From Clostridia bacterium (lineage in GTDB: Bacteria; Bacillota; Clostridia; CAKSNL01; HGM11501), in assembly GCA_045545475.1 (NCBI GenBank), contig JAZQAZ010000023.1:1-64000 (forward strand): a stretch of DNA of 64,000 bases. Direction: 5' to 3'. Below, one piece after another: positions 17,933-33,973 of this stretch. The notes beneath the pieces were generated by a model that did not search any database, had not been told where the DNA came from, and worked only from the letters and a program-made list of their open reading frames with translations. The position numbers and the translations under genes are program-made. Numbering within the stretch: position 1 is the first letter of the stretch; the number at the start of each line of letters is the position of its first letter.

Positions 17933-19273
17933 TTAAAGCGATTTTATTAAAGCCTTTCCTTCATCGATTATATGCTCTGCAACGCCTGCACGGAAACGTG
18001 AGCTTCTTGCCTCATAGCCGCCCTCTTCATAGGAATCCTTCATCGGGAAATATCCTTCATAGCCGTTGGCAAGACCTATCGGGATAACCATATCAAAGCC
18101 TTCTGTCTCTTTAAGGGCAAGACCGATATTCGTAAAGCCTTCACCGGGTATTGTCACAAAGGCAACCTTTCCCAAGGACACCGCATTTATGTTCATCGGG
18201 AAGCTTTCGGGGCCGTGCTCTAATGCCACCATTCTTGCCGCCTCGGCAACAACGGTTGTAAGCATCATTCCCGAATAGGGAATTTCATCATCCTTACCTG
18301 CCTTATGAAGCTCGTTTATTCTGTGAGCCTCCGCCATATCGGAAGGCTTTGGCATATTGGATGCAACAAGCATAACCTTTGCCTTTGCACTGATTTTTTC
18401 CACATCCACATAGTTTACTTTGGCAAAGCACTGAAGCACCCCGCCTGTAACCACATTTGCCATATGCTGTGCGTGGCTATAGCCGCGGGCAACATCGTCA
18501 AAATCATTAAACATTCCGTTAAAGTCGCCGCCCTTGGGGTTTACATTAACGTGGTTTACATCGCCCTCTGCCCCGTTTACAACGATGCACAGGGAGTTAT
18601 CAATAACCTTTTCAACGGTCCTTCTTGTAAGGCCGGGCCAGTCAGAAGATATTTTGCTTCCGCCGACAACGTCGGGATGAGTGGTGAAGTTTGTAAAAAT
18701 TAAGGTTTTGCCGTCTGTTCGGTCAAATCTTAATACGCTTACACGCTCATCGACAATGCCGAGAGGTTTTACTATGTCGGGATTATTTACACCGGGATTG
18801 GTTTTTATGCTTCCGTCCTTCATAACGTAGCGTCTTCCGAAGGATATGTTTTTAGCTTCGCCTACCCCGTAGCCCATTTTTGCATCGGTAAGGTCAGAAA
18901 CGGCAAGAAGTGACACTTCTTTAATTCTTTCCTTAAGGAAAGCCATATACTTTTCTGTTTTCTCACACTTATCAACATCTTTGGTAGATGGGCCTGTGTG
19001 AGTATGGGTTGAGCATATTATAATGTTTTCAAAAGGAACGCCGGTCTCATCTGTAATTGCCTTCCTGTAATCGTCAAGTAATTCCATTTTAAGTCCGCAG
19101 TTGTCAACGGCGATAATCAAAACAGTTTCCTTGCCGTCGGAAAGCGAAAGTGCGTTTACCTCAAGGTCATCGAGTATTCCCTCAACGAAACGGGGTTTAT
19201 AATAGCCCGCAATGGGTGTTCCCTCTTCGGGATTTATAACCAGTCTTCCGAATCCTGCTTTTAAGTTATTCAT
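17933..19273 (-). CDS. Neutral/alkaline ceramidase-like metallo-amidase (cytoplasmic, substrate unknown)
   Basis: LKAGFG N-terminus, STHTHTGP, THPD, NGAEGDVN, PGE and GYFP...GGYE motifs; no signal peptide. Confidence 0.75.
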   Translation of the reverse strand: MNNLKAGFGRLVINPEEGTPIAGYYKPRFVEGILDDLEVNALSLSDGKETVLIIAVDNCGLKMELLDDYRKAITDETGVPFENIIICSTHTHTGPSTKDVDKCEKTEKYMAFLKERIKEVSLLAVSDLTDAKMGYGVGEAKNISFGRRYVMKDGSIKTNPGVNNPDIVKPLGIVDERVSVLRFDRTDGKTLIFTNFTTHPDVVGGSKISSDWPGLTRRTVEKVIDNSLCIVVNGAEGDVNHVNVNPKGGDFNGMFNDFDDVARGYSHAQHMANVVTGGVLQCFAKVNYVDVEKISAKAKVMLVASNMPKPSDMAEAHRINELHKAGKDDEIPYSGMMLTTVVAEAARMVALEHGPESFPMNINAVSLGKVAFVTIPGEGFTNIGLALKETEGFDMVIPIGLANGYEGYFPMKDSYEEGGYEARSSRFRAGVAEHIIDEGKALIKSL

Positions 19274-19285
19274 ATTAATACCCCA

Positions 19286-20332
19286 TTAAACTCTTACAAA
19301 ACTCTTTGTTTCGGTGGATTTATATGCCGCTTCTATAATCTTCTGGTCGTAAATTGCACTTTCGATTGATACGGGAGGCAGAGTTCCTTCCGTTATCGCA
19401 TCGCAAAGACCGTCGATTTCCTTGGTGTACATATTACCTAAGGGCACATCGGAAAGGGATACAGGTGTAAGCTCTCCACGTGCTTGACTTGCATCATACT
19501 CAAGAGAATCGTCGCTTATTAAAATATCAACGTTACCAACCTCTGCCTGAGCGAGAGTACCGTGAGCAACTATGCTTCCCTTTGTGCCGTAAATTTCAAG
19601 CTTTGCAACGGATGCGGCATCGGGAATGTTGAAGTTGGAATCAACATAGGCAACAGAGCCGTTATCCATCTTCATAATTACGTTGGAGGAATCGTCAACC
19701 TCATAATTAAATGTCTGTGTCTGGTTGAAGGCAGCAACCTCTACAGCCTTAAGGCCTGTGATATAATGAATAAGGTCGATTACGTGAATGCCCATATCAA
19801 CCAGTGCACCGCCGCCGCTTGTTGCCTTCTTCTGACGCCATGCGCCCTCTATATCGGGATACCAGCAGGTGAACTGACCGCGGATTGAAACGATTTCACC
19901 GATTTTACCTTCCGCTATAATCTCCTTGATTTTCTGATGATAGCCGTGGAAGCGCATAAGGAAGCCGATGCTTACCTTAACGCCATTTTCCTCGCACACC
20001 TTTTTGATTTCTTCGGCATCGGCAACAGTTAATGCAACGGGCTTTTCAAGCAGAATATGTTTTTTTGCCTTTGCCGCCGCAATTGCCTGCTCCTTATGGA
20101 AGAAAACAGGAGAAGCGATATAAACTGCATCTATTTCATCGAGGGATAAAACATCCTCATACTTTGTAAAAGCATATTTTGCCCCGTATTTCTCCTTACA
20201 ATTTTCTGCGGCTTCTATGCTTGTATCCATAACGGCAACAAGCTCCGCCTTATCCGAAAGCATCATACCGGGAAGAGTTCTTCTGTCTGCAATTCCTCCG
20301 CAGGCAATAACGCCCCATTTAACTTTTTTCAT
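19286..20332 (-). CDS. Gfo/Idh/MocA family NAD(P) oxidoreductase
   Basis: WGVIACGGIA, LLEKP and GGGALVDMGIH; start moved to MKKVKW. Confidence 0.93.
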   Translation of the reverse strand: MKKVKWGVIACGGIADRRTLPGMMLSDKAELVAVMDTSIEAAENCKEKYGAKYAFTKYEDVLSLDEIDAVYIASPVFFHKEQAIAAAKAKKHILLEKPVALTVADAEEIKKVCEENGVKVSIGFLMRFHGYHQKIKEIIAEGKIGEIVSIRGQFTCWYPDIEGAWRQKKATSGGGALVDMGIHVIDLIHYITGLKAVEVAAFNQTQTFNYEVDDSSNVIMKMDNGSVAYVDSNFNIPDAASVAKLEIYGTKGSIVAHGTLAQAEVGNVDILISDDSLEYDASQARGELTPVSLSDVPLGNMYTKEIDGLCDAITEGTLPPVSIESAIYDQKIIEAAYKSTETKSFVRV

Positions 20333-20372
20333 ATCTTTCCTTCCTTTCATTTAAGGATTGACCCTTTCGGGC

Positions 20373-20396
20373 GAAGGGTTGCTTTCGCAACCCTTC
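20373..20396 (-). other. Intergenic hairpin after the DegT aminotransferase gene
   Basis: GAAGGGTTGC-tttc-GCAACCCTTC. Confidence 0.6.
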
Positions 20397-20426
20397 AAAG
20401 TTTTGTATTTTAAGGTTCCGGTAGAC

Positions 20427-21701
20427 TTATTTTGTGTGTGCAGCAAGAACTTTCTTGAAGCCTTCTATGCACTTTTCAATGTGAATTTCTTCCCAGGAGG
20501 GATGTAAGAAGAGGCAAACTGTCTGTGCACGAAGAGCGTGTGCATTCTTGCAGAATACCTTATCGTACTGAACAGCAGAAGGATCAGCATATTCCTTGGA
20601 CTCGAAGGGGAACTTAGCTTCGCCGAATCCGCCGTGCTCTCTGTATGCCTTTTCTTCATAAGCTTCGGGCCACTGAATACCGTAGCAGGGAATCTTTGCA
20701 GCACCAAGCTCTTTTACGATCTGGGGAGCGTCGCAGTCAAGAACTGAAAGGTCAACTAAAATGGGATACCACCAGTAAGCGTTCTTTCTTTCCTTTGTGT
20801 TTACGGGAAGCTTCTTGATTCCCTTTAAGCCTGTGAACGCATCGTCGTACATTTTTGCATACTTGAATCTTCTTGCAAGATTCCAGTCATCAAGTCTAGC
20901 AAGCTCGTTGATACCGATAACTGACTGCATTTCTGTCATTCTGTAGTTAAATCCAACTCTTCTGTGGATATAAGGAAGCTTTTCTTCCAGTGCAAGCATA
21001 TTCATTCTTGTCTTTACGTCGTAACCGTGGTCACGGAAGGAACGGCACTCCCAGCCTACTTCTTCGTCGTTTGTTACAACCATACCGCCTTCACCGCCGG
21101 TGGTAAAGTGCTTACTCTGGCAGAAGGAGAAACATCCAACGTCACCAATTAAACCTGCCTTAACGCCGTTATACTCACCGCCGAAGCACTGTGCACAATC
21201 TTCAACAACCTTTAAGTTATGCTTCTTTGCAACAGCCAAAATACCACCCATATCAGCAACAACACCGTAAAGGTGAACAACTAAAATTGCCTTTGTTCTT
21301 TCTGTGATTAAGCCTTCGATGCTTTCAGGATCCAATGTATGATCGTCTGTTACGTCAGCGAATACGGGAATTGCACCTGCCTGAAGAACTGCGAAAGAAG
21401 ACGCAATGAAGGAATAGGATGTAACGATAACTTCATCGCCGGGGCCGATGTTCAATGCCGCAAGTGCGATGTGAAGAGCAGCAGTACCGTTAGTGCAGGA
21501 GATTGCCATCTTGGCACCCATCCACTTTGCCCACTTTTCTTCAAATTCCATACCTTTTTTACCTGTCCAGTAGTTAACCTTACCTGTCTTTAATACCTCT
21601 AAAACCTCGTCGTAGGACTTTTCGTTGAACTGGGGCCACATAGGAAAGCCGATTTCCTCAATGCCCGCTCCGTTCATAACTATTTCTTTTTCCTTTGCCA
21701 T
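20427..21701 (-). CDS. DegT/DnrJ/EryC1/StrS family PLP-dependent sugar aminotransferase
   Basis: NGTAALH, GPGDEVI, VHLYG, EDCAQ, FSFCQSKHFTTGGEGG (PLP Lys) and GFNYRM. Confidence 0.95.
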   Translation of the reverse strand: MAKEKEIVMNGAGIEEIGFPMWPQFNEKSYDEVLEVLKTGKVNYWTGKKGMEFEEKWAKWMGAKMAISCTNGTAALHIALAALNIGPGDEVIVTSYSFIASSFAVLQAGAIPVFADVTDDHTLDPESIEGLITERTKAILVVHLYGVVADMGGILAVAKKHNLKVVEDCAQCFGGEYNGVKAGLIGDVGCFSFCQSKHFTTGGEGGMVVTNDEEVGWECRSFRDHGYDVKTRMNMLALEEKLPYIHRRVGFNYRMTEMQSVIGINELARLDDWNLARRFKYAKMYDDAFTGLKGIKKLPVNTKERKNAYWWYPILVDLSVLDCDAPQIVKELGAAKIPCYGIQWPEAYEEKAYREHGGFGEAKFPFESKEYADPSAVQYDKVFCKNAHALRAQTVCLFLHPSWEEIHIEKCIEGFKKVLAAHTK

Positions 21702-21724
21702 AATAAAACACCCTTTCTTATTCG

Positions 21725-21747
21725 ATTAGTCCAATGACTGGACTAAT
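21725..21747. promoter_or_regulatory. Candidate ROK repressor operator 1 (palindrome)
   Basis: ATTAGTCCA-atgac-TGGACTAAT with perfect 9-bp arms, just upstream of the DegT gene RBS; second copy at 22923. Confidence 0.75.
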
Positions 21748-21755
21748 TATTTTCA

Positions 21756-21800
21756 AAAAAATCCGCTTGAGGCGGTTTTCGCCTCAATTGCGGTTTTTTT
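21756..21800 (-). terminator. Hairpin or terminator after the ROK gene
   Basis: CCGC-TTGAGGCG-gtttt-CGCCTCAA-tt-GCGG flanked by A/T runs. Confidence 0.6.
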
Positions 21801-22905
21801 ATATGCTGAAAAGCTTATCAAAGGAGTATCTCGCTCCGCCTAAGGCAACGGGATTTTCCTTTAATGATGAATATACAATTTTTTTATTTTTTATGAGAGA
21901 AATTTCAGAGAAGCACTCTTTTACAGGATTAAGAAATGCATCCCCCGTCTCCCTTACCGAGCCGCCGATTACGATAAGCTCGGGATCAAGCAGATTTACA
22001 ATATTATTTATTCCAAATGCAAGGGCACGCGCCGCTTTTTTAAGTGCCTCTTTTTCCTTTTCGCCGGAAAGTTTTTTTACTTCCTTTGCAGATTTCACCT
22101 TTGTGGCATCTAAAATTGCCGGCATACTTGAATATAACTCCAGGCAACCGTATGACCCGCATTTACAGTGTTTTCCGTTAAAGTCAACACTGATGTGGCC
22201 AAACTCCCCTGCCATTCCGCTTCCGTCATAAATTTCACCGTCAATTAAAATTCCTGCACCTACACCGTCGTCAATATCCACGGATATTAAGTTTTCGGGA
22301 TGCTCGTGACCGCCGAATTCCTTTTCCGCAAGGGCGATGAGCCCCGAATTGTTTTTAAGGTAAATATCAATGTCGGGCAGTGCTTCATTTAAAGTGGAGT
22401 AAATATCCTTTGCATCCTCCGCCGCCATAACCGTTGATGATATAAGCGTGTTTGTATCAGGATCGATAACTCCGGGAAGCCCGATTGTTATGCCAAGTAT
22501 TCTTCTGTTCCGGGATAATCTCCCTACAGCGTGCATTACTGCCATTGCAAGGTTTTCTCCCTTTATTACGGGATGCTCAATTTTTTCAGCAAGCGTAAAG
22601 TCAAGACCGTAGCAAGATGCTTCAATCCTTGTTTTCTGAACATCAAACCCGATGAAAAAACCACCCTCTGAATTTACTTTAAGCATAACGGCTTTTCTTC
22701 CGCTGCTTTTTGTGTTTTTAATTCCGCATTCTGAAACAAAGCCTTCTGCCATTAATTCCTCAACCAACGTTGAAACGGTTGTTGCTGAAAGGTTAGTTAT
22801 TTTTTTTATATCCGCACGGGAGATTTTTTTGTTTTTATGTATGAGAGAAAACACAAGTTTTAAGTTTGCTTCTTTTATAAGCTGCTGTGATGCCTTGTTA
22901 TCCAT
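21799..22905 (-). CDS. ROK family transcriptional repressor (XylR/NagC-like)
   Basis: N-terminal HTH ISRADI...LSATTVS, SSGRK linker, GLPG, GEFGH and CKCGSYGCLE zinc motif; start moved to MDNKAS. Confidence 0.93.
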   Translation of the reverse strand: MDNKASQQLIKEANLKLVFSLIHKNKKISRADIKKITNLSATTVSTLVEELMAEGFVSECGIKNTKSSGRKAVMLKVNSEGGFFIGFDVQKTRIEASCYGLDFTLAEKIEHPVIKGENLAMAVMHAVGRLSRNRRILGITIGLPGVIDPDTNTLISSTVMAAEDAKDIYSTLNEALPDIDIYLKNNSGLIALAEKEFGGHEHPENLISVDIDDGVGAGILIDGEIYDGSGMAGEFGHISVDFNGKHCKCGSYGCLELYSSMPAILDATKVKSAKEVKKLSGEKEKEALKKAARALAFGINNIVNLLDPELIVIGGSVRETGDAFLNPVKECFSEISLIKNKKIVYSSLKENPVALGGARYSFDKLFSI

Positions 22906-22922
22906 CGTTTCCTCTCCTTCTA

Positions 22923-22945
22923 ATTTGTCCAATGGCTGGATAAAT
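22923..22945. promoter_or_regulatory. Candidate ROK operator 2 (autoregulatory)
   Basis: ATTTGTCCAATGGCTGGATAAAT, 19/23 identical to operator 1, immediately downstream of the -10 box. Confidence 0.7.
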
Positions 22946-22947
22946 AT

Positions 22948-22975: not shown

Positions 22976-22983
22976 TACCTTTA

Positions 22984-23784
22984 TCAAAGAAAGTCTTTTA
23001 TGAATTCTCCGCCCGAAAGCGTATATACGTACGAAAAGCCTAAATCTTTAAGCATTTTTCTGCTTTCATCAAACTGAAAGTCCAGTGTTTTAACCTCGTG
23101 GCTGTCGGAGGATAAAATAAGTCCTCCACCCTCTTTACGGATGATATGAAGTAAATTTTCATAAGGATAGGGCGTTTTGCGATATCCCCTTGCTATTGCT
23201 CCCGTATTAAGTTCGAAAAGTGAGCCGCTTTTAAGTGCCTCTTTCACATATTTTTCAGAAATTGTGAGGTATTTTTCATTATTTAAAAATCTCACTTCAT
23301 CAATTTCGTCAAACTTGGTGATTAAATCGAAGTGCCCGATAACATCAGGCTTTCTTCTATTTATATATTCGCAGAAATTTTCATAGTAGTTTTCCGTAAG
23401 CTTTATTAAATCTCCGTCAAAAGCTTTAAGTCCTGTCTTGAAATAGTCATAGGATGAGTCGATCGGGTAATACTTACCCTCAACCAGAAAATAGTGGCAG
23501 GAACCTATTATATAGTCAAAATCATTTCTCTTGGCCGGTGCAAAAGCATCCTCTTCAACGCCGAGATATACCTCGATTTTTTCCTTGTACCTTTCCTTTA
23601 AGCGATTAACTTCTACCCTGTATCCTTCTATATCATGCATACAGTAGCGAAGGTCATAGGGTGTATAGCCGTGGGATGAAAATCCGATTGCGGAAAAGCC
23701 TTGATCTATTCCGTATAATACAACTTCTTCAGGAGTGTTTACGCCGTCACAAAAGGTTGAATGTGTGTGAAAATTCGATTTCAT
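22984..23784 (-). CDS. PHP-family phosphatase (HisJ/histidinol-phosphatase-like)
   Basis: NFHTHSTFCDG, GFSSH, IIGSCH, GHFDL and SSDSH. Confidence 0.88.
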   Translation of the reverse strand: MKSNFHTHSTFCDGVNTPEEVVLYGIDQGFSAIGFSSHGYTPYDLRYCMHDIEGYRVEVNRLKERYKEKIEVYLGVEEDAFAPAKRNDFDYIIGSCHYFLVEGKYYPIDSSYDYFKTGLKAFDGDLIKLTENYYENFCEYINRRKPDVIGHFDLITKFDEIDEVRFLNNEKYLTISEKYVKEALKSGSLFELNTGAIARGYRKTPYPYENLLHIIRKEGGGLILSSDSHEVKTLDFQFDESRKMLKDLGFSYVYTLSGGEFIKDFL

Positions 23785-23795
23785 AGTGTCCCCTT

Positions 23796-24584
23796 TTATA
23801 AATTAAGTAATCTCTTTGCATTTAAGGATAAAATCTTTTCCTTGTCGCTATCCTTGATAAGCATATCGTTTACTACTCCGCCGACAAACATAGCGGGATT
23901 ACAGGTAGGATAATCCGTTCCGAAAAGGATTCTGTCCGCCGAGAAAACATCAATGGCACGTTTTAACATTCCGTAGCGGGTTATTCCCGTTCCTGACAAA
24001 TCAAGATAATAGTTATCATATTTTTTTGCAAGGTCAAAATGCAGCATCAATGTAGGATATTCCCCGGGATGCGCCGCAACGAAGACTAAGTCGGGATGTT
24101 CTTTCACCATTTTTTCAATTCCGGTTATATTTTCAGGGATAGTGTGAAAGCTTATAACCATATTATGCTTTCCCGCCTCATTTAAGATTTCATAGAGATT
24201 ATCATCCCCGTAGTCCTTCCAGCCATCCATATAAGGAACTATCTCGCCTATTAATTTTACGCCTTCCTTATTCATACGTTTAATTTCCGAAATTGATTCT
24301 TCCGGAAAATTGGGATGAATGTGAAAACCCGGAACGTAAAAGCCCTTATAATATTCTTTAAGCTTCAGTGCTTCATCATTGTTTTCCTTTATTTTATCAA
24401 AAAGAGTTTCATATTTGTCATTATCACGACTCACAACCGAACCGCATATTTTAGATATACCAAGCCCCTTTAAGACATCCATCGAAAAAGCTTCGTCCAT
24501 CGGGATAAATTCCTTATGGGGGCAGATATTATTCTTTTCATCCGAAAAGGGATGGGTGTGAAAATCTATTATTTCAAAAGACAT
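23796..24584 (-). CDS. Amidohydrolase_2 family TIM-barrel metallohydrolase
   Basis: IIDFHTHP, AAHPG, RILFGTDYP and EKILSLNAKRLL. Confidence 0.88.
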   Translation of the reverse strand: MSFEIIDFHTHPFSDEKNNICPHKEFIPMDEAFSMDVLKGLGISKICGSVVSRDNDKYETLFDKIKENNDEALKLKEYYKGFYVPGFHIHPNFPEESISEIKRMNKEGVKLIGEIVPYMDGWKDYGDDNLYEILNEAGKHNMVISFHTIPENITGIEKMVKEHPDLVFVAAHPGEYPTLMLHFDLAKKYDNYYLDLSGTGITRYGMLKRAIDVFSADRILFGTDYPTCNPAMFVGGVVNDMLIKDSDKEKILSLNAKRLLNL

Positions 24585-24592
24585 AAAAAAAC

Positions 24593-26044: not shown

Positions 26045-27532
26045 TTATTCAAACATTTTGTTGATTTCACTAACTGTTTTTCTTACAAGCAAATCTCCGC
26101 CCACGTGGCCTGACACACCGCTTGAAACGTATGCCGAATAATGGCTTCCCGATTCTGCTTTTTCTGTGGGAAGGTAGCCCTTGGAGCCACAGCATAGCTG
26201 AATTAAAAATGTCTGCTTTGCCTTGCTTCTCGCCCTCATCTGATTTCCGTAATCAAGGAAAAGCTCATAGGGGTTTGTTGCAAAGGCAATGTTTCCGAGA
26301 CGGATTATATGTACTTCAATTTCATCAACATTTTTTGTTTCCTGGTCTTCAAATCTTGCAAGAGTGCCTGCGTGAATGTGAAGCTTAGCGGTATCATTAA
26401 AGTTGATTGTTCCGGTTTTATTCTGCTCAAAAAATTTCTTTATTGTTTCTTCCGCCTTGTCCTTTTCCTCAATTGTGACACGGCGAACGGGCATATCAAG
26501 CTTAAATGTTTTATGGATAAGCGTTGCCTCATCAACGTAAGAATTTACTTCTTCAAAAGCATATTTTATTTCGTCGGAAATTCTTCTTGCCACTTTTTTG
26601 CACCCCGAAACATCAAACATTGAAGGATCGGTAGTTCTTTCTATTACATAATCTCTTTCGATGTTTGGATCGTTTATGGGAGTTTCAGGTTCAACCCATC
26701 TTATCATATCACGTGGGCACTGGTCGCCTGCGGCAGAGATAAGGCCGAGAACGTATATATCCTTTCCGTATTCAGCACGAAGGTATTCCTTTACCTTGCC
26801 CCAGTAGTCGGCAGAAATGAAGTTTCTGTGCTCCAGTACCTGGGCAGGACAAGCCACGTTTGCAACAACGCCTGTCAGCTTTTTATTTTTGTCATAGGTG
26901 AACAGAATTTCAATACCTGAATCGTTTCCGCCTTCAAGGGCTGTGAAGTTTGCCTTGTTGGTATCGCCCCACATCTTTGCGCTTCCGTCATCATAGCAAA
27001 CTCTTCTGCACATTCCGACAGCTGCTCTTCCGAAGGCTTCTGCATACATTCCCTCGTCCTTTTTGTTCCAGGCTTCAATTACCGCTTCAGCAATTTTGTC
27101 TGCAATGTAGGAATGTGCCTCTTCATCCCTGAATATATCCTCTGCATCGGTTTTTGCAAGTTCTTCATACTTTATGCCTTCGGGAGTAAATCTTTTAAGA
27201 CACTGAAGTCCTCCGCCGAAGGTATCGCTTCTTCTTGCGTAGGAAGGAGCGGTATGGGTGTGGATTGCACCTATAATAATCTTATCAAGAGGAAGGGATA
27301 TTTTACCTTCCACCCTCTCCCTTACCGAGCAAAGAAGCTGATAGCTTGTTGACACAAGATCGCAGGAGCACATAACAAAGGCATCTTCGCCACTCTCAAC
27401 GGCAAATGCCGTTACGGTTAAGGGCGACTCAACCTGATCTGATACTCTTTCATAAAACTGTCCGGCAAGGCTTACCTTTACACCCTCCGGAATTATGCTT
27501 TTTTCGCTCCATCCGATTTTTATCTTACTCAT
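26045..27532 (-). CDS. Ceramidase-like metallo-amidase paralog (hypothetical protein)
   Basis: IKIGWS N-terminus, AIHTHTAP, SAAGDQCP, PYELF and GYLPT; same motif order as 17933-19273; start moved to MSKIK. Confidence 0.65.
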   Translation of the reverse strand: MSKIKIGWSEKSIIPEGVKVSLAGQFYERVSDQVESPLTVTAFAVESGEDAFVMCSCDLVSTSYQLLCSVRERVEGKISLPLDKIIIGAIHTHTAPSYARRSDTFGGGLQCLKRFTPEGIKYEELAKTDAEDIFRDEEAHSYIADKIAEAVIEAWNKKDEGMYAEAFGRAAVGMCRRVCYDDGSAKMWGDTNKANFTALEGGNDSGIEILFTYDKNKKLTGVVANVACPAQVLEHRNFISADYWGKVKEYLRAEYGKDIYVLGLISAAGDQCPRDMIRWVEPETPINDPNIERDYVIERTTDPSMFDVSGCKKVARRISDEIKYAFEEVNSYVDEATLIHKTFKLDMPVRRVTIEEKDKAEETIKKFFEQNKTGTINFNDTAKLHIHAGTLARFEDQETKNVDEIEVHIIRLGNIAFATNPYELFLDYGNQMRARSKAKQTFLIQLCCGSKGYLPTEKAESGSHYSAYVSSGVSGHVGGDLLVRKTVSEINKMFE

Positions 27533-28991
27533 TTTTATTTCCCCCATCCTTTAACGCACACGAAAATTCGTATAAAGCGTTAAATTTTTCATACTTTTCG
27601 TCAAGCACTCTATCGTGTTTTGGAGTATATACCTTTTCAAATTCAATGGCTTTTGCCGCATCATCAAGACTTTTGATTTTGCCGTCGGAAATTGATGCAA
27701 TTATGGCAGCACCTAAGCACGCCGCTTCCTTTTCCTTCGGCACCATAATGGGATAGCCCGTGATATCCGCCTGCAGCTGACACCAGAGGTCGCTCTTTGA
27801 ACCGCCGCCCGTTGCAATTATCGCATCAATCTTGGTTCCGTTTCCCTTTATGTACTGAAGATTTTTCTTAAGAAGGAAGCCTACACCCTCCATTACGGCG
27901 TATGCCATGTCAAAAGCATCGTGCTCCTGACGAAGGCCCCAGAATACGCCTGTTGCACGGCTGTCAAACTCAGGAGAATTTGTGCCCACAAGATAGGGCA
28001 GAAACAAAAGGGAGTTTCTTTTTCTCTTTTTAATTTCCTCGTCAATTTCCTTAAAGGAAGAATCCTTCATACAGGTGTTTTTGAACCATTCAAGGCTTAC
28101 TCCGCCGCTTTCCGCAACGGGAAGCATAATGTGTGTATCCGGAAGAAAGCCGTAGTGCATGGCTATTCCTCTTATGTCATCGCAAGGCTCCTTTGAAAAG
28201 GTTGCCATTGCCATAACGGTACCGGTGGAAAGAGTGATTTTACCCATTTTTATGTTGCCGGTACCAATCATTCCTGCAAAATGGTCAAGTGTGCCCACAT
28301 TTATTTTTGTGTTTTCCGTAATGCCAAGTTTTTCTGCCACATCCGCTTTAAGGCATCCTGCAACGGAACAGGGCTCAACCAATGGCGGAAGCTGTTTTTC
28401 GCTTATTCCGATGGCATCTGTCATTTTCTTCCAGTAGCATTTTTTATAAATGTCAAAATAGAAGGAAAAGGTTGCAATCGACATATCGGAGACCTTTTTG
28501 CCGGTCAATGCAAAAATCACATAGTCCTTAAGGAGCATATAGGTTTTTGCATTGTCGTAAACTTCCCTTTTATTTTTCTTAAGCCACAAAATTTTTGTTG
28601 CCGGCCAGGTGGGAAGCACCGCCTGCTGACCTGTTACACTTTCGCATTCTTCCTTTGAAAAGAGCTTTGAAAGAGCCGCACATTCCTCAACCGAGCGCTC
28701 ATCCATCCAGGAAATGGCGTTCATCAGGGGATTTCCGTCATTACCTACAACAACCAATGACTCCGCCTGACCCGTAAACGCCATTTCGTTTACGGATTTG
28801 ATTTTGTTTTCCTTTAAGATTTCGCTTAAAAGCTTAATGAGATTATTTACATACTCTTTTGCATCAAACTCCACAAAGCCCTGCTCTCTTATATAACTGA
28901 CGGGAAAGCTTTTTCTTGAAACAAGCTTCATTTCCCCGTCATAGAGAGCCGCCTTGATGTTGGTGCTTCCGAGGTCAATTCCTATGTACAT
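27525..28991 (-). CDS. FGGY family carbohydrate kinase (xylulokinase-like)
   Basis: IGIDLGSTNIKA, ISWMDER, STGT, FLPYLVG and TGGGSKSDLWCQ. Confidence 0.92.
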   Translation of the reverse strand: MYIGIDLGSTNIKAALYDGEMKLVSRKSFPVSYIREQGFVEFDAKEYVNNLIKLLSEILKENKIKSVNEMAFTGQAESLVVVGNDGNPLMNAISWMDERSVEECAALSKLFSKEECESVTGQQAVLPTWPATKILWLKKNKREVYDNAKTYMLLKDYVIFALTGKKVSDMSIATFSFYFDIYKKCYWKKMTDAIGISEKQLPPLVEPCSVAGCLKADVAEKLGITENTKINVGTLDHFAGMIGTGNIKMGKITLSTGTVMAMATFSKEPCDDIRGIAMHYGFLPDTHIMLPVAESGGVSLEWFKNTCMKDSSFKEIDEEIKKRKRNSLLFLPYLVGTNSPEFDSRATGVFWGLRQEHDAFDMAYAVMEGVGFLLKKNLQYIKGNGTKIDAIIATGGGSKSDLWCQLQADITGYPIMVPKEKEAACLGAAIIASISDGKIKSLDDAAKAIEFEKVYTPKHDRVLDEKYEKFNALYEFSCALKDGGNKNE

Positions 28992-29007
28992 AATTATCTC
29001 TCCAATG

Positions 29008-30366
29008 TCACATTACAAGTTCAATGTCCATAATTTTGCAAAAGTCCTTAATTTCCTCGGTAAAGTTTCCGTATGCAACCAAAACGTGCTGACCTGCCAC
29101 ATTCTGGGCGAACTCTTCAACTGTGCAGCTGTCGGGGAAAACCTCTAAGCTGGGAAGCTGAGGAGCGGGATCGTCCCATCCGTATTCGTTCCACGCAGGA
29201 GGATTTTTAGCCTCTGCGGTATAAACGTGCATCTTGTATTTTCCGTTTAAGTAGTAAAGTCTTGCACAGGTAACATAACCCGTTTTTACCTTTGATACGT
29301 TAAGAAGAGAAGAATTAAGAAGACCGAATGCCGCAGGAAGAACTGTTACATCGCCGTCTGTCACAGCCTTGGGAACAAAGTCCGGAACGCCGATTAACAT
29401 ACTCTCTTCAAAGAACTCGTAGTATTCAAGATAAGGAACAGTCTGTCCCGATAAATACTTCATTAAAATCTGTGTAACCGCACCCATAATGTCATTTTCG
29501 GGAATCGTTAAAACGCCGTAGTAATGCTCAAGAAGCATAAATACCATTGCAGGAGGGAAGCCTAAAAGTTTCTTCATTCCGTCAACGTCAAGAAGCGTAA
29601 TTGCCTCCCAACCGCGCTCTTTTATCTTCATGCCGATGGCAAGGGCATATTTAACGCCGTTTTCGATAACGGAATCGTCACATTCCTTATTGAATTTCCA
29701 GTTTTCCTTTACAAAGTCAACTCCTGCCTTTATTTCATCTGCCGAAAGCTTTTCAAGGTTCTGTACCATTTCAAGCATTTCAAAGGGCTCAACCTCAACG
29801 CCGATTTTACCACGCATGGAGTTTCCTTCAAACTGTGTGCCGTAGAGAAGCATATCACGGTAGCCCATTGTGCCGACTCTTGCACTCCTTAATTCCTTCT
29901 TTGCACAGGACGCCGTAAGGAAAGCATTTATTTTAGCCAAAGGATAATCCTTGCCGATTACATTGTAAACATACTTAAAGGTGTAGCCAAGTGCTTCAAA
30001 AGCAGGTCTTATTGCAGTTGTCCCTGCCTGCTCTGCAGTTGTGATGATTCTACCGTTTTCCTTCCAGCCGCAAAGCCCCCATAAAAGCATGGGAATGTGT
30101 CTGAAATTGTCTGTTACTCTTATAACGGCGTGAGTGGGAACCCAGCCTGCAACGCAGACAACCAATGCAGAAAAATCCTTATCAAGGATTTTTGCGATTG
30201 CCGCATCTGCTGTTTTATATTCAGGATCGTCAATTACAAGGCCGCCGTCAAAAACCTCATAGCCTAAGTTTTTAATTACGGAAAGTCCCTCATCGTGCTT
30301 CATTTCAAGTCTTTCTATGGGTGTGTTTATTTCACCGAAACAAACAAAAGCAATTTTCTTATTCAT
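29008..30366 (-). CDS. L-fucose/L-arabinose isomerase-like sugar isomerase
   Basis: Overall layout with PENDIMGA (E-x-D), GYVTCARL and QHVLVAYG, typical of FucI-like proteins. Confidence 0.75.
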   Translation of the reverse strand: MNKKIAFVCFGEINTPIERLEMKHDEGLSVIKNLGYEVFDGGLVIDDPEYKTADAAIAKILDKDFSALVVCVAGWVPTHAVIRVTDNFRHIPMLLWGLCGWKENGRIITTAEQAGTTAIRPAFEALGYTFKYVYNVIGKDYPLAKINAFLTASCAKKELRSARVGTMGYRDMLLYGTQFEGNSMRGKIGVEVEPFEMLEMVQNLEKLSADEIKAGVDFVKENWKFNKECDDSVIENGVKYALAIGMKIKERGWEAITLLDVDGMKKLLGFPPAMVFMLLEHYYGVLTIPENDIMGAVTQILMKYLSGQTVPYLEYYEFFEESMLIGVPDFVPKAVTDGDVTVLPAAFGLLNSSLLNVSKVKTGYVTCARLYYLNGKYKMHVYTAEAKNPPAWNEYGWDDPAPQLPSLEVFPDSCTVEEFAQNVAGQHVLVAYGNFTEEIKDFCKIMDIELVM

Positions 30367-30402
30367 ATTTTTATCTCCTTTTTTACCAAGCAGGGTCCTG
30401 CA

Positions 30403-31536
30403 TTAGTCAATAACTTCTACTGTTTTGTTGTAGAAGGATTTAAGAGCCGCTGTTGCCATAGTATGAGAAAGAACGGTTTCTTCGGGAGTAAATAAGCCGA
30501 AGGGTACTTCCTTTCCTTCATATTCCATAATGAATGCGGCAATCTGCTGCTGAATTGCATCTGTAAAGCCGAATTCAAAGATGGGGCCTGTGATTGTGGG
30601 AATCATAGGCTTATAGCCGATTATAATGCGGTTCCAGGACTGCTCCTTACCCCAGGATGAGGTGTAATAGAAAGCGTTTGCATCGTCACTTGAGAAGCGT
30701 GCACTGCAATCCATACCGTAAATTTCAAAGAACCAGCGGTTTGTGGATCCGGGACACATTCTCTTTGTTTCAAAGGTCATAGGAATTTCGTCACCGTCTG
30801 CATTCAATGTGGTTGTGAAAATTGTGCAGTTATCAAAGGTATCGCAAACAACAGTTCCTCCCTTGCCGTCGGGACGCTCCTTAACAATGTTGGAAAAATG
30901 TGCTCTTACGGTCTTTGGCTTAAAGCCAAGGCGGAAAGGAACGTGCTGTGTGTGAATACCAAGGTCACCGAGGCAACCGTATTCGCCGTTGAACTTAACC
31001 ATTCTCTTCCAGTTGATGGGTTTATTTACGTCCATATCACTGCAGTGATTAAAGCCGCAGTGTATTTCAAGAATTTTACCGAATTTACCTTCGTTAAACC
31101 AGTTAATCATAGTCTGCATTGCAGGATAATAGGGGAATTCGCTGCAGCAACGAACGAAGGTTTTGGGATTTTCCTTTATAGCTTCCATAATTTTGTCATT
31201 TGCCGCTTTATCAATACCAAAGGGCTTTTCGCCAAGAAGTGCCTTTCCGCTTTTTATAATGTCAATATAGAACTGCTCGTGAAGGTTGTGAGGAACGGCA
31301 CAGTAAATTGCGTCGATATCCTCTTTATCTAAAAGTTCTTTATAGTCGGATACAGCATATTTGATTTCCGGGAAATTATCCTTGAACCAGTCCATTTCGG
31401 CAGGAACAACGGAGCATATACCAACGATTTCGGGTTTTGCAATATCTTCCTTAAGGTGGCACCATCTTGCCGCCGCAGATGTAAATTCTCTTGCCATAAG
31501 GCCACAGCCGATAAGGCCGAATTTAATTGTTCTCAT
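30403..31536 (-). CDS. Gfo/Idh/MocA family oxidoreductase
   Basis: FGLIGCGLMA, AVPHNLH, LGEKPFG and GCLGDLGIH. Confidence 0.92.
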   Translation of the reverse strand: MRTIKFGLIGCGLMAREFTSAAARWCHLKEDIAKPEIVGICSVVPAEMDWFKDNFPEIKYAVSDYKELLDKEDIDAIYCAVPHNLHEQFYIDIIKSGKALLGEKPFGIDKAANDKIMEAIKENPKTFVRCCSEFPYYPAMQTMINWFNEGKFGKILEIHCGFNHCSDMDVNKPINWKRMVKFNGEYGCLGDLGIHTQHVPFRLGFKPKTVRAHFSNIVKERPDGKGGTVVCDTFDNCTIFTTTLNADGDEIPMTFETKRMCPGSTNRWFFEIYGMDCSARFSSDDANAFYYTSSWGKEQSWNRIIIGYKPMIPTITGPIFEFGFTDAIQQQIAAFIMEYEGKEVPFGLFTPEETVLSHTMATAALKSFYNKTVEVID

Positions 31537-31566
31537 AATTTTACCTCTCTTTATTTAAAGTATTTC

Positions 31567-31606
31567 AAGGGTTATTGCATTAAAAGACTTTAAGCAATAA
31601 CCCTTG
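31567..31606 (-). other. Intergenic hairpin after the class III aminotransferase gene
   Basis: AAGGGTTATTGC...GCAATAACCCTT inverted repeat. Confidence 0.6.
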
Positions 31607-31614
31607 TTTTTTTA

Positions 31615-32985
31615 TTAATATCCGAAATGCTTTTCGGTCTCGGCTACTGCCTCTTCAATTATGTCAAGTCCCTTAAGTGCTGCTTCGTCGTCAAGAATCA
31701 TAGGAGGAGACATACGAAGGATATGACCGGAGGGTACCCACGCAAGACCCTTTTCGAATGCCTTCTGATAAATCATCTGACCTGCTTCTGCGAAGGGCTC
31801 CTTGGTGTCTCTGTCCTTTACGATTTCGATTGCCTGCAGGCATCCCAAAGCACGAACGTCGCCGATGATGGGATGTGCTTCCATCATCTTTTCCATCTTG
31901 GCAAGCATAATCTCACCAAGATGAGCTGAACGCTCATTAAGATTTTCTTCTTCGATAACTCTGATGGATTCAAGAGCTGCAACACAAGCCATGGGGTTTC
32001 CGCCGTAGCTTGAGGATGCGGAAATCTTTTCGATGGCAGGAGCTAAATCCTTGGAAACTGCAAGTGCGGTTACGGGGAAGCCGTTACCGAAGCCCTTACC
32101 AAGGGTTGTAATATCAGCTGTAACATTCCAATGATCCATCGCAAGGTATTTACCTGTTCTTGCCATACAGTTAAGAACTTCGTCGGCAAAAAGAAGTATA
32201 CCGCGTTTGTCGCAAAGAGCACGAAGTGCGGGAATGAAGTCATCGGGAGGAATGATGGAGCCGCCCCAGCCCTGTACGGGCTCTAAAACGATGGCAGCAA
32301 CGTTTTTACCGCCTGATGCACAAGCGTTATCAAGCATACCTTCGATCATATGGATGTAGGGTGTTGAATCCTTCCATGCCTCTTCGGGTGTTCTTCCGAA
32401 AAAGTCACGATAGGGATTGGGACGGGGAACAAGCATAAAGCCGGGTGCTCTCATATGTGTGTCGGGGCCAACAACTGCAAGGGAGTTTGCACCGTAGGTC
32501 TTACCGTGGAAGTCTCTGAAGAATGAAATGAATTCCTGCTTGCCTGTTGCCGCCCTTGCACAGCGAAGACCTGCTTCAACAGCAGTTGTACCTGAATCGT
32601 AGAACTGGAAACCGCCGAAGCGTCCGCCTGTGATTTCGTGAAGCTTTTCGACAAGTTCCATCTTTACCTTTGTTGTAAAGTCATGGCAGTTCATAAGTTT
32701 TTTAGCCTGCTCGGCAACAGCTTCACTGATTTTGGGATGGCAATGACCAAGACCGGTTACATAGATACCGGATGAAAAGTCAAGATATGTATTACCGTCA
32801 ACGTCGGTAAGAGTGTATCCGTAGCCGGATTCAAAGGTTACGGGGAAAAGCTTAACCTGGCTGGAATAGCCTTTCATATACTTTGCACATCTTTCGTGAT
32901 ATTCAACTGATTTAGGTCCGGGAACGGTTTTTGTTACCATATGGGGAACCTTTGTAAGATCCATTTTTGCCCAATCTTTAGCCAT
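31615..32985 (-). CDS. Class III PLP-dependent aminotransferase (GabT-like)
   Basis: DVDGNTYLDFSSG, LGHCHP, FHGKT, EPVQGWGG, ADEV, TLGKGFGNGFP and YGGNPMAC. Confidence 0.95.
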   Translation of the reverse strand: MAKDWAKMDLTKVPHMVTKTVPGPKSVEYHERCAKYMKGYSSQVKLFPVTFESGYGYTLTDVDGNTYLDFSSGIYVTGLGHCHPKISEAVAEQAKKLMNCHDFTTKVKMELVEKLHEITGGRFGGFQFYDSGTTAVEAGLRCARAATGKQEFISFFRDFHGKTYGANSLAVVGPDTHMRAPGFMLVPRPNPYRDFFGRTPEEAWKDSTPYIHMIEGMLDNACASGGKNVAAIVLEPVQGWGGSIIPPDDFIPALRALCDKRGILLFADEVLNCMARTGKYLAMDHWNVTADITTLGKGFGNGFPVTALAVSKDLAPAIEKISASSSYGGNPMACVAALESIRVIEEENLNERSAHLGEIMLAKMEKMMEAHPIIGDVRALGCLQAIEIVKDRDTKEPFAEAGQMIYQKAFEKGLAWVPSGHILRMSPPMILDDEAALKGLDIIEEAVAETEKHFGY

Positions 32986-33004
32986 AATAAATTCTCCTTT
33001 TTAT

Positions 33005-33186
33005 TTTTTTCATTTTTACTTTCTTTTTTCTTTCAAAAGCTATAACTTTATTATATAACAAAGCTTTTACATTGTCAATACTTTTTTTGTTTTTATTTTC
33101 GTTTACTTTCGTTTCAAAAGAACTGAAAGCGATTTTCCCCTTTTTTTCTCCCCTTTGTTGACAAAACGAAAATAAAATAGTATAAT
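33005..33186. promoter_or_regulatory. Divergent consensus sigmaA promoters with TTTC-repeat (DeoR/AgaR-like) operators
   Basis: Minus: TTGACA (33078-33073)-17-TATAAT (33055-33050). Plus: TTGACA (33158)-17-TATAAT (33181). TTTC repeats at 33005-33039 and 33091-33120, inverted copy at 33163-33177. Confidence 0.7.
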
Positions 33187-33217
33187 CAAAGCATAACATA
33201 AAGAGGAAGATGATAAA

Positions 33218-33973
33218 ATGGTAGCAGAAGAAAGAAGAAAAAAAATTCTCGAAATCCTGAATAAGGAAGGCAGCATTCGTGTAACGGAATTAAGCCGTAT
33301 CTTCGAAACCTCCGAAGTAACCATAAGAACAGACCTTGCCGATATGGAATATAAAGGACTACTTACCCGTGTTCACGGCGGTGCGGTGTGTTCCTACAAG
33401 CCTTATTACAGCATGAGCTTAAATCAGAGAATGTCCACAAATCAGGTACAAAAGGAGATTATTGCAAATAAAATTGCAGGAATGATTGAGGATAACGACA
33501 CCATCATGCTTAATTCGGGCACAACCACACTCCTTGTTTTCCGTGCCATTCCGCAAAACTTAAATTTAAGCATTGTGACAAACTCAATTTCCATAGCCCT
33601 TGAAGGAACATCGAATCCCAATTTCAACATAATTCTTTTAGGCGGTCTCATAAATTCCAAGTATCAGTTTACTTTTGGTGACGATGCCATAAGACAGCTT
33701 AAGAGCTATCACGCAGACAAGCTCATTTTGTCAGTTGACGGAATTGACCTTGAACACGGCTTTTCCACCTACTATGATAAAGAAGCAGAAATTGACAGAA
33801 TTATGCTTCAGCAGTCAAACGTAAACATTGTTGCAGCTGACCATTCCAAATTTGACCGCTGTGCTTTCACAAAGATTTCCGACCTTTCCGTTGCCGACTA
33901 CATAGTAACCGACACCGATGCACCGGAAAAAATGAAAGGAAAGTTATCGAAACAATCAATTAAAATATGCTAA
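33218..33973 (+). CDS. DeoR/GlpR family transcriptional regulator (AgaR-like)
   Basis: ERRKKIL, SEVTIRTDL, RVHGGA, NSGTTT, IVTNS and ADHSKF. Confidence 0.95.
   Translation: MVAEERRKKILEILNKEGSIRVTELSRIFETSEVTIRTDLADMEYKGLLTRVHGGAVCSYKPYYSMSLNQRMSTNQVQKEIIANKIAGMIEDNDTIMLNSGTTTLLVFRAIPQNLNLSIVTNSISIALEGTSNPNFNIILLGGLINSKYQFTFGDDAIRQLKSYHADKLILSVDGIDLEHGFSTYYDKEAEIDRIMLQQSNVNIVAADHSKFDRCAFTKISDLSVADYIVTDTDAPEKMKGKLSKQSIKIC

Follow-up and report, generated by a model that had tools for sequence, protein, structure and literature searches.

The genes of the island

This work concerns a gene island at 17933..33973 of a stretch of DNA 64,000 nucleotides long (the window; positions 1 to 64,000 of contig JAZQAZ010000023.1, assembly GCA_045545475.1, Clostridia bacterium). 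The host is an uncultured herbivore-gut Clostridium, and the close relatives of the island are carried by metagenome-assembled genomes (MAGs) of uncultured Clostridia from goat, sheep, deer and similar guts. A preliminary description had divided the island into a module A, with genes for a ROK regulator, a DegT aminotransferase, a Gfo/Idh/MocA oxidoreductase and an amidase, and a module B, in which a class III aminotransferase takes the first position next to a divergent DeoR gene, and had proposed that both are used for catabolism of free rare amino sugars or aminocyclitols. The thirteen open reading frames (ORFs) were confirmed where that description had placed them, twelve on the minus strand and the DeoR gene on the plus strand. 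All family calls given here come from Pfam and NCBIfam searches of these 13 proteins, and the families which had been named were largely borne out (ROK, DegT, two Gfo/Idh/MocA, PHP, MATE, FGGY, class III and DeoR). The absence of nucleotidyltransferase, dehydratase and glycosyltransferase families from the 13 island proteins also holds good in the Pfam search. The genes, in the order of the coordinates, are:

17933..19273, minus strand: CerA, predicted cytoplasmic ceramidase-fold zinc hydrolase, putative N-deacylase (Ceramidase_alk 25.3 bits, cut-off 32.1)
19286..20350, minus strand: GfoA, Gfo/Idh/MocA oxidoreductase, putative keto-sugar reductase (Pfam)
20427..21701, minus strand: DegT/DnrJ/EryC1-family aminotransferase dependent on pyridoxal phosphate (PLP) (Pfam 311.9 bits)
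21799..22932, minus strand: ROK-family regulator, winged helix-turn-helix plus ROK, NagC/Mlc-like (Pfam ROK 147 bits and HTH_24)
22984..23784, minus strand: PHP-domain phosphatase of the HisJ family (TIGR01856 126.6 bits, cut-off 90.2)
23796..24584, minus strand: Amidohydro_2 metal hydrolase (Pfam 114.2 bits)
24648..26006, minus strand: MATE efflux-type transporter (Pfam MatE; TIGR00797 181.7 bits, cut-off 147.4)
26045..27547, minus strand: CerB, ceramidase-fold hydrolase (no Pfam or NCBIfam match; fold from AlphaFold model)
27525..28991, minus strand: FGGY sugar kinase, xylulokinase-like (TIGR01312 XylB 342.3 bits, cut-off 380.25)
29008..30366, minus strand: predicted AraA/FucI-fold aldose-ketose isomerase (Fucose_iso_C 26.2 bits, cut-off 29.3; fold from model)
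30403..31536, minus strand: GfoB, divergent Gfo/Idh/MocA oxidoreductase (Pfam 52.5 bits)
31615..32985, minus strand: AT3, class III PLP aminotransferase of the gamma-aminobutyrate (GABA)/ornithine-aminotransferase subgroup (Pfam 306.6 bits)
33218..33973, plus strand: DeoR-family repressor, AgaR-like, divergent from AT3 (Pfam DeoRC and HTH_DeoR; AgaR 204.1 bits, cut-off 260)

The ROK protein scores 137 bits on the NCBIfam model NagC and 129 bits on Mlc, both under the cut-offs. The FGGY kinase passes the Pfam models of its family and does not reach the XylB equivalog. Amidohydro_2 is a family which includes lactonases and decarboxylases; the member found here gave weak partial matches only when compared with solved structures. 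The start of CerB is likely at 27532 because its relatives in the databases are 495 amino acids (aa) long. A seemingly conserved 459-aa ORF opposite DegT was discarded as an antisense artefact.

The ceramidase-fold hydrolases and their partner enzymes

CerA and CerB are homologous along their full length (21% identity, E 1e-13). A model of CerB made with AlphaFold2 (AF2) from 45 sequences has a predicted local distance difference test score (pLDDT) of 90.4, and Foldseek matches it to neutral ceramidases only (4wgk and 2zws/2zxc, E 3e-23 to 2e-21, TMq 0.66-0.68, probability 1.00). The profile of the Cer family likewise finds the human and the Pseudomonas neutral ceramidases in the PDB (E 3.3e-22 and 1e-18). 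The homology of the two proteins and the fold of the model thus agree with the name "ceramidase-like" that both amidases had been given. At the level of Pfam the relationship is hardly visible, CerA being under the gathering threshold of PF04734 (25.3 against 32.1 bits) and CerB giving no match; a paralogue on contig C9 of the same genome passes at 36.3 bits. The family is large, as 4054 of 8000 candidates scored are homologues of CerB with E <= 0.001. Among 120 listed CerB homologues the name is "hypothetical protein" wherever one is shown, and none has a Pfam domain.

The alignment of 45 Cer sequences covers both the CerA and the CerB type. Nine residues are invariant in all 45 (D58, H91, H93, R176, N225, D242, E423, Y453 and Y465), and H91-x-H93 is aligned with THTHSGP in both solved ceramidases. 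CerA has the H-x-H, Arg, His, Glu and the two Tyr in invariant or near-invariant columns. The invariant H-x-H, Arg, Glu and two Tyr we take to be the zinc and catalytic residues of the ceramidases. A third His, in an H-P motif, is shared by 22 of the 45 sequences, CerA among them; the 23 sequences of the CerB type all lack it and have an invariant Cys one position earlier.

Compared to the neutral ceramidases (human ASAH2, 4wgk; Pseudomonas aeruginosa, 2zws/2zxc; PF04734) the Cer proteins have the same fold of the catalytic domain, the THTH(T/S)GP motif, and the invariant Arg, Glu and two Tyr 12 residues apart. They differ in that the identity is 13-15%, in that they are 446 and 495 aa long against 646-688 aa, and in that the C-terminal domain is absent, the profile matches stopping near residue 504 of 4wgk and residue 469 of 2zws. 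Neither CerA nor CerB has a signal-like hydrophobic stretch at the N-terminus, the CerB clade has its Cys one residue ahead of the missing H-P His, and the Cer genes of the island are found in sugar operons and not in lipid contexts. From these sequence features we read CerA and CerB as probable cytoplasmic, metal-dependent amidases acting on small soluble substrates.

The best solved relative of the island DegT is 7l7x (E 9.9e-78, 265 bits; the next best 212 bits). This is Pcryo_0638, the C4 aminotransferase of UDP-4-keto-6-deoxy-GlcNAc (GlcNAc, N-acetylglucosamine) in the step to 2,4-diacetamido-2,4,6-trideoxyglucose, as described in PMC8040287. In NCBIfam the island DegT scores highest on PseC and LegC, models of enzymes for the scaffold on which 7l7x acts. 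With the residue numbering calibrated on the catalytic Lys185, the DegT motif SFCQSK aligns with Ser180, Gln183 and Lys185 of Pcryo_0638 and an ED with Asp156. The catalytic Lys, Asp and Ser are therefore kept, and so is Gln183, which according to the same paper contacts the 2-acetamido group. Lys215 and Tyr229, given there as contacts to phosphate and uracil, are aligned with Tyr and Leu of DegT, and Phe335 with Tyr; the alignment of the loop around Lys215 and Tyr229 contains a gap. These changes give no more than a lean away from a nucleotide handle on the substrate. The island DegT thus belongs to the family of Pcryo_0638, PglE, PseC and LegC. It differs from these in having a Gfo/Idh/MocA enzyme as partner, with neither a 4,6-dehydratase nor an N-acetyltransferase, in not keeping Lys215 and Tyr229 in the alignment, and in a context which appears to be one of regulated uptake and catabolism.

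Both oxidoreductases pass the Pfam models of the Gfo/Idh/MocA family and do not reach the IolG equivalog (160.2 bits for GfoA and 47.6 for GfoB, cut-off 355). The nearest solved structures to GfoA are 1,5-anhydro-D-fructose reductase (E 1.4e-34), DgpA and aldose-aldose oxidoreductase, which are enzymes of free sugars; for GfoB all solved structures are distant relatives. AT3 scores best on PRK05769 (363.7 bits, cut-off 552) and has 227-288 bits on models of GABA aminotransferases with cut-offs of 507-725, so no equivalog is reached here either.

The isomerase of module B had been called FucI-like. It is below the cut-off of all sequence models (Fucose_iso_C 26.2 of 29.3 bits, SftI 40.1 of 700, AraA 23.3 of 622). 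The AF2 model (pLDDT 85.3) is matched best by L-arabinose isomerase (E 1.7e-27, TMq 0.82) and then by D-arabinose/L-fucose isomerases (E 4e-20 to 5e-16). Judged from the model the protein appears to have the fold of the isomerase superfamily as had been supposed; the name should be changed to "AraA/FucI-fold", which is more exact as AraA is the best match.

Control regions, linkage and conservation

The features found between the genes of the island are:

20373..20396, minus strand: GC-rich intercistronic hairpin between DegT and GfoA, 10-bp stem, no U-tract (minimum free energy (MFE) -25.5 kcal/mol, z -4.4)
21767..21787, minus strand: terminator-like hairpin just past the ROK stop codon, 8 pairs followed by GCGGATTTTT (terminator scan)
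31566..31606, minus strand: intercistronic hairpin between AT3 and GfoB, 18 bp (MFE -23.8 kcal/mol, z -6.7)
33050..33186, no strand: divergent DeoR-AT3 control region, with promoter-like sites and three TTTCGTTT/AAACGAAA copies at 33097, 33107 and 33164

The hairpins that the preliminary description had placed after the two aminotransferase genes are real, since none of 200 shuffles was as stable as either of them. They also recur in relatives. A hairpin of -15 kcal/mol or stronger is present in 18 of 22 DegT-GfoA spacers of at least 40 nt, and a strong hairpin in 47 of 54 orthologous AT3-GfoB spacers of at least 40 nt, with unrelated sequences. A clear U-tract is absent from most of them. The hairpins may act as partial terminators or as stabilisers of 3' ends which set the ratio of the aminotransferase to the downstream enzymes. 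Single contigs from metatranscriptomes span the AT3-GfoB hairpin; as contigs give no expression level and DNA carry-over is possible, these were not used as evidence. The contigs, from three RNA runs of one study and a further run whose type is uncertain, reach a likeness of at least 90% in 20-28 of 30 bins.

Promoter-like sites with perfect TTGACA/TATAAT boxes (12/12) are found before AT3 (33078-33050, minus strand), before DeoR (33158-33186, plus strand) and, with a TG, before ROK (22975-22948). Sites with 11 of 12 matches precede the Amidohydro_2 gene (24636-24608) and the gene of a TAXI protein described below (17798-17770). The number of such sites is not raised overall (47, against 41.8 in shuffles). 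The triple TTTCGTTT/AAACGAAA cluster in the DeoR-AT3 spacer is unique in the 2.74-Mb genome, and one of the copies is located inside the spacer of the DeoR promoter. At least two copies are present in 15 of 19 orthologous DeoR-AT3 spacers, including loci where DeoR is 59-63% identical. This makes the repeats a candidate operator for DeoR. A wider DeoR regulon was considered and given up, as the other two paired TTTCGTTT sites of the genome fall within coding regions.

The loci of relatives were compared for CerA (42 loci), CerB (19), DegT (80) and AT3 (80), with the ORFs clustered and matched to the proteins of the window. It should be noted that the DegT and AT3 sets are the best 80 of many more and therefore biased to close relatives, and that one CerB locus with a partial match (L061) was left out of the counts, which gives n = 18; Cer-family and PIG-L neighbours were counted within 8 kb. 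In 73 loci the sequence extends far enough past AT3, and in 72 of these the next gene is GfoB; GfoA follows DegT in 40 of 69. The recurrent co-occurrence named in the preliminary description as a check is thus found for the aminotransferase-oxidoreductase pairs; it fails for the amidase, which is optional, and for the two modules together, which recur on one other contig. Near AT3 we find DeoR in 29 of the 80 loci, the FGGY kinase in 28, a Cer-family gene in 21, the AraA-fold isomerase in 15 and MATE in 5. The 80 DegT loci have ROK in 31, a Cer-family gene in 18 and PIG-L in 14. With a Cer gene near 21/80 AT3 and 18/80 DegT loci the amidase is not the obligate third member of the set.

Seen from the amidases the linkage is sparser, DegT accompanying CerA in 4 of 42 loci and AT3 accompanying CerB in 2 of 18. 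The steady partners of CerB are the isomerase (11/18) and the kinase (12/18), and frequent extra neighbours are MFS transporters, M20 peptidases, PGA_cap proteins and LacI regulators. No gene is a constant neighbour of the CerA relatives, which are variously accompanied by AraC regulators, SNF-family transporters, Amidohydro_1, M20 peptidases and tandem Cer arrays. Such arrays, of three or four ceramidase-fold paralogues, were seen in loci of Clostridia MAGs (L021, L027, L037, L041 and L042), the one in L041 adjoining an SNF-family transporter, a MATE transporter and a PocR-AraC regulator. Locus L050 has a fuller form of the CerB-isomerase-kinase core, in which two tandem CerB genes share an operon with TIM, SIS, UPF0047 (YjbQ), FGGY, the AraA-fold isomerase, a transaldolase/FSA-type aldolase, a polysaccharide deacetylase and two MFS transporters.

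The full two-module arrangement is found on one other contig only (L002, L043, L062 and L142 are all on it), and at least three MAGs hold the two cassettes on different contigs (L082/L159, L112/L213 and L075/L175). The notion of a conserved island must therefore be abandoned; because the full arrangement recurs once and the cassettes are split among MAG contigs, the island is regarded as a local juxtaposition of two independent cassettes.

Two types of operon are seen among the related loci. One consists of DegT, PIG-L, a NagB-like gene, GfoA, in some cases Cer, a PfkB kinase and ROK (L086, L089, L097, L098 and L116), the other of AT3, GfoB, in some cases FGGY, a NagA-like gene, Cer and a NagB-like gene (L154, L158, L160, L163, L184 and L204). 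L145 has Cer and NagB-like genes with AT3-GfoB and no NagA-like gene. The NagA-like protein of these loci scores 194 bits on the nagA model and one NagB-like cluster 50 bits on nagB. Glutamate dehydrogenase adjoins DegT or AT3 loci in L069-L071, L099 and L166. In L082 two BNR_2 proteins and a NanA-like lyase stand ahead of GlyK-ROK-DegT-CerA, and L123 has a NanA-like lyase with DegT, Cer, Gfo, PIG-L and PfkB; judged by family the lyase of these two loci would point towards nonulosonic acids. Just upstream of the DeoR-FGGY-AT3-GfoB-aldolase-Cer-NagA-like-NagB-like operon of L154 (at 2134-3003) is a gene of the aminoglycoside 3-N-acetyltransferase family (Antibiotic_NAT).

The repeated logic of amidase, aminotransferase and oxidoreductase which had been noticed in the two modules is met again in two further sets of the same genome. 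On contig C9 (26000-45900, L239) the Cer gene with 36.3 bits on Ceramidase_alk is followed by a second DegT, and the two adjoin an ADH-Gfo-ADH-MATE-PHP-EutH set and a ThuA-Gfo pair. On contig C39 (6000-18127, L238) a paralogue 54% identical to CerB is found with an AsnC regulator, an M20 peptidase, a class I/II aminotransferase and an Ldh_2 dehydrogenase; this module also holds an Fe-ADH, a protein of the metallo-beta-lactamase fold and a GH39. The 2.7-Mb genome thus has four amidase-aminotransferase-oxidoreductase sets with three fold types of aminotransferase.

The genome also holds four nagA and several nagB-like paralogues. It has no glmS above the cut-off at 95% completeness, and on contig C8 (42382-45176) a NagB gene directly follows glmM, which suggests that hexosamines are synthesized via NagB in reverse. 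AT3-GfoB as a bypass of GlmS was considered and dropped in view of the NagB adjoining GlmM, the nagA and nagB-like genes, and AT3 not being found in 6 of 6 congeners.

Across 80 other species-level genomes, labelled Lachnospiraceae, Oscillospiraceae, Acutalibacteraceae and others, AT3 is 89-99% and GfoB 82-98% identical in amino-acid sequence. Where housekeeping genes are present in such a locus, the figures are 74% for RpsB and 56% each for Tsf and TopA; the identity of AT3 against that of RpsB is 94% versus 75% in G144 and 92% versus 74% in L188 and L193. The identity at third codon positions is only 0.47-0.62 for the AT3-GfoB relatives, so that synonymous sites are near saturation. The 90-96% identity is therefore not put down to a recent horizontal transfer, and we regard the AT3 and GfoB proteins as old and strongly constrained.

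The distribution is patchy. When 199 genomes of the class other than the window's own were sampled, 4 had an AT3 orthologue (at least 67% identity), and it was not found in any of 6 congeners; the best match below these is 37% identical. Orthologues of DegT (at least 70%) were found in 16 of the 199. The identity of DegT disagrees with the taxonomy, being 72-99% within the genus and yet 91% and 85% in another family, which points to older transfers. DegT is also present in 3 of the 4 genomes with an AT3 orthologue, which is weak evidence of association as two of these are congeners. That AT3-GfoB are housekeeping genes was considered on account of the high conservation and of neighbours such as class II aldolase, aro genes and Hsp33; it is ruled out by the patchy distribution. 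The orthologue of this class II aldolase in the window's genome (85% identical) is unlinked to AT3-GfoB, and the kinase beside the aldolase in some AT3 loci is a rhamnulokinase, probably of a neighbouring operon.

On one side the island is flanked by the housekeeping genes rpsB-tsf-trmFO-topA and on the other by GtrA, glycerate kinase and three tandem GH2 genes. Adjoining the downstream end of module A are the genes of a TAXI-TRAP system which the preliminary description had missed, as it had the PIG-L gene beyond them:

12350..13081, minus strand: PIG-L family N-deacetylase, BshB1-like (Pfam PIG-L 93.1 bits; NCBIfam BshB1 113.6 bits, cut-off 182.5)
14327..16684, minus strand: fused TRAP permease with a C-terminal LysM domain (TIGR02123 TRAP_fused 663.1 bits, cut-off 320.65; Pfam DctM and LysM)
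16782..17738, minus strand: TAXI-family TRAP solute-binding protein (TIGR02122 318.8 bits, cut-off 84.35)

The TAXI protein is likely to be the importer component for module A, and a TRAP importer suggests that the substrate of the module is anionic. LysM is a module binding peptidoglycan or chitin and an unusual fusion partner for a TRAP permease. The PIG-L family is the one which in other genomes sits between DegT and GfoA. GtrA, PIG-L and Acyl_transf_3 genes are located within 11923-14281 and a WecG/TagA transferase at 44534-45268. The three GH2 genes (2112-10609) code for beta-galactosidase paralogues of 936, 950 and 948 aa and after them comes an ORF of 668 aa (125-2131) which no Pfam model matches; the synteny of this array with the island is preserved in the close relatives L003 and L005. 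Two very large surface proteins with SLH domains (1377 and 1032 aa) are encoded at 48073-55382 and have no further recognisable domain.

Amino-sugar catabolism and rival explanations

The logic of the island has parallels in known pathways. It has in common with the catabolism of GlcNAc and N-acetylgalactosamine (NagA, NagB/AgaS, NagC, AgaR) a NagC-like ROK protein, an AgaR-like DeoR protein and the order of deacylation before deamination, and NagA-like and NagB-like partners are found in the loci related to it. It differs from this pathway in that the amino group would be removed by transamination and reduction instead of by a deaminase of the NagB type, in that the predicted deacylase has the ceramidase fold, in that a phosphotransferase system is absent, and in that none of the curated cut-offs is reached. 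To our knowledge the removal of the amino group by transamination and reduction is not part of textbook amino-sugar catabolism. With araBAD and fucIK module B has in common an isomerase followed by an FGGY kinase. The coupling of a DegT aminotransferase to a Gfo/Idh/MocA enzyme is known from the synthesis of kanosamine/neotrehalosadiamine (NtdA-NtdB-NtdC) and of rhizopine-type inosamines (inositol dehydrogenase and MosB), and NtdA and inosose aminotransferases are among the solved matches of the island DegT. These routes interconvert C-OH, C=O and C-NH2 on a sugar or cyclitol without a nucleotide and are biosynthetic. The island does not match the NtdABC pathway, whose enzymes act on glucose 6-phosphate, its phosphatase being of the PHP and not of the HAD type, and compared to both routes its amidases, repressors and importer point to the reverse, catabolic direction.

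The reading which we consider probable, with some reserve, is that the island consists of two separately promoted, independently inherited accessory cassettes which degrade N-acylated amino sugars or closely related amino-polyols. From the gene families and folds, the conserved metal-site residues, the linkage, the hairpins and the promoter and operator motifs we infer the catalytic activities, the direction of the flux, the order of the steps and the substrates as follows. The Cer hydrolase, predicted to be a cytoplasmic zinc enzyme, would first remove the N-acyl group and free the amine. The PLP aminotransferase would then move the amino group of the sugar onto a 2-oxo acid, leaving a keto sugar which the adjacent Gfo/Idh/MocA enzyme would reduce to an ordinary hydroxyl. 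Module A would be transcribed from the promoter ahead of the ROK repressor gene and be followed by the TAXI-TRAP importer. Because DegT is closest to the C4 aminotransferases of bacillosamine, pseudaminic and legionaminic acid synthesis, the substrate favoured for this module is of the 2-acetamido-4-acylamino-deoxyhexose type, and the product may pass to the many NagA/NagB paralogues of the genome. Module B would be under DeoR control via the TTTCGTTT repeats; after transamination and reduction the AraA-fold isomerase would convert the aldose to a ketose, from which the xylulokinase-like kinase would yield a ketose phosphate. Of the proposal for free amino-sugar catabolism in the preliminary description, this retains what is carried by the ROK and DeoR regulators, the isomerase, the kinase, the TAXI-TRAP system and the NagA-like, NagB-like, PIG-L and PfkB partners; the conserved island and the obligate amidase had to be given up.

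Several observations weigh against this reading. None of the island enzymes reaches an equivalog cut-off in NCBIfam. The kin of AT3 are GABA and ornithine aminotransferases and racemases, whose known substrates are amino acids, and the gap in the DegT loop alignment near Lys215/Tyr229 makes the case against a nucleotide handle weak. Most Cer-family genes have no aminotransferase as neighbour, and many adjoin M20, PGA_cap, SNF-type/MFS or AraC genes. Module B lacks a dedicated importer, and its last gene codes for an efflux-type transporter of the MATE family. The PHP phosphatase and MATE, paired again on C9, suit export or biosynthesis better than catabolism. The NanA-like lyase accompanies DegT and Cer in 2 of the 80 loci only. 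A tblastn search of the window's genome with the lyases of L082 and L123 and with a BNR_2 protein gave DapA-type genes only and no BNR_2 match. A counterpart of the nonulosonic-acid lyase was thus not found in this genome with these queries. The other DHDPS matches among the loci proved to be DapA genes beside dapB.

Some of these observations would be explained if the modules degrade non-sugar amide conjugates such as stem peptides of peptidoglycan or pseudomurein, N-acyl amino acids, acyl-polyamines or acyl-amino-alcohols. The Cer enzyme would then cut the amide, giving an amino acid or amine for the aminotransferases and, from their action, an oxo compound for the oxidoreductases, and the sugar enzymes would serve a separate sugar moiety. 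CerB relatives beside M20 peptidases and PGA_cap proteins (L048, L051, L052 and L147) agree with this, as do the C39 paralogue with its AsnC regulator, M20 peptidase, class I/II aminotransferase and Ldh_2, the nearness of AT3 to GABA/ornithine aminotransferases and amino-acid racemases, the SNF-family transporters near CerA relatives (L033 and L041), the LysM domain on the TRAP permease, and EutH with the PHP phosphatase in the C9 module. We nevertheless find it unlikely, because CerB is tightly linked to a sugar isomerase (11 of 18 loci) and to a sugar kinase (12 of 18), because DegT-family enzymes are aminotransferases of sugars or cyclitols, and because NagA-like, NagB-like, PIG-L, PfkB and ROK partners recur and regulators of the DeoR and ROK families are typical for sugar operons.

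The same genes can also be read in the direction of synthesis. If a Gfo enzyme oxidises a sugar phosphate, an aminotransferase aminates it, PHP dephosphorylates it and MATE exports it, the product would be an amino sugar, an aminocyclitol or an iminosugar-type metabolite, in the direction of kanosamine or deoxynojirimycin. The aminotransferase, Gfo dehydrogenase and phosphatase would mirror NtdA/NtdC/NtdB. NtdC is a Gfo/Idh/MocA enzyme and NtdB a phosphatase, and in Bacillus a GabT1-phosphatase-dehydrogenase route makes deoxynojirimycin. NtdA is indeed a match of DegT (E 3.8e-36), but a far weaker one than the C4 aminotransferase 7l7x (128 against 265 bits). MATE and PHP between the modules, and the MATE-PHP pair again beside Cer-DegT on C9, fit with export; of 80 loci each, however, no more than 5 have MATE with AT3 and 1 has PHP with DegT. 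Module B has no importer, as would be expected for export, whereas module A has the TAXI-TRAP uptake system. The amidases, the isomerase and the kinase have no role in such a route, and the DeoR and ROK repressors and the NagA/NagB-like partners elsewhere also argue against it; we consider it quite unlikely. It is very improbable that DegT-GfoA, as a pair like WbpB/WbpE or GnnA/GnnB, makes an NDP-amino sugar for the cell's own surface glycan, to be modified by the PIG-L, GtrA and acyltransferase proteins. In favour of it, DegT is matched best by aminotransferases of NDP-sugars (7l7x, perosamine synthetase and the PseC/LegC models) and is highly conserved, and GtrA, PIG-L, Acyl_transf_3 and WecG/TagA genes are nearby. 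At variance with it are the missing glycosyltransferase, dehydratase and nucleotidyltransferase in the island, the ROK repressor and TRAP importer of module A, and GfoA, which is nearest to reductases of free sugars and has no WbpB-type enzyme among its matches at E <= 1e-25. The nucleotide-contacting Lys215 and Tyr229 of 7l7x are not kept in the alignment with DegT, and the patchy distribution of DegT is at odds with the taxonomy (72-99% in the genus, 91% in another family).

Returning to amino-sugar catabolism, a more specific form of it can be proposed, which is possible but doubtful. Gut Clostridia would have a widespread route for bacteria-specific di-N-acyl diamino sugars from the surface glycans of other microbes, namely hexoses of the bacillosamine type and those which form half of legionaminic and pseudaminic acid. 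The second N-acyl group would be taken off by a new family of truncated, cytoplasmic zinc amidases with the ceramidase fold, and a DegT or class III aminotransferase together with a Gfo/Idh/MocA reductase would reverse the biosynthetic amination. If true, a family of more than 4,000 proteins would gain its first physiological function, and the route would account for an aminotransferase-reductase cassette which outdoes a ribosomal protein in conservation.

No paper on a pathway such as is proposed for the island was among those listed by full-text literature searches. If the catabolic reading as such is true, gut anaerobes would have a new means of gaining carbon and nitrogen from rare amino sugars, and the very large family of ceramidase-fold hydrolases, which has no name and recurs in the sugar operons of Clostridia, would receive a first function. 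The analysis or remodelling of bacterial glycans is a possible use for the enzymes of the island.

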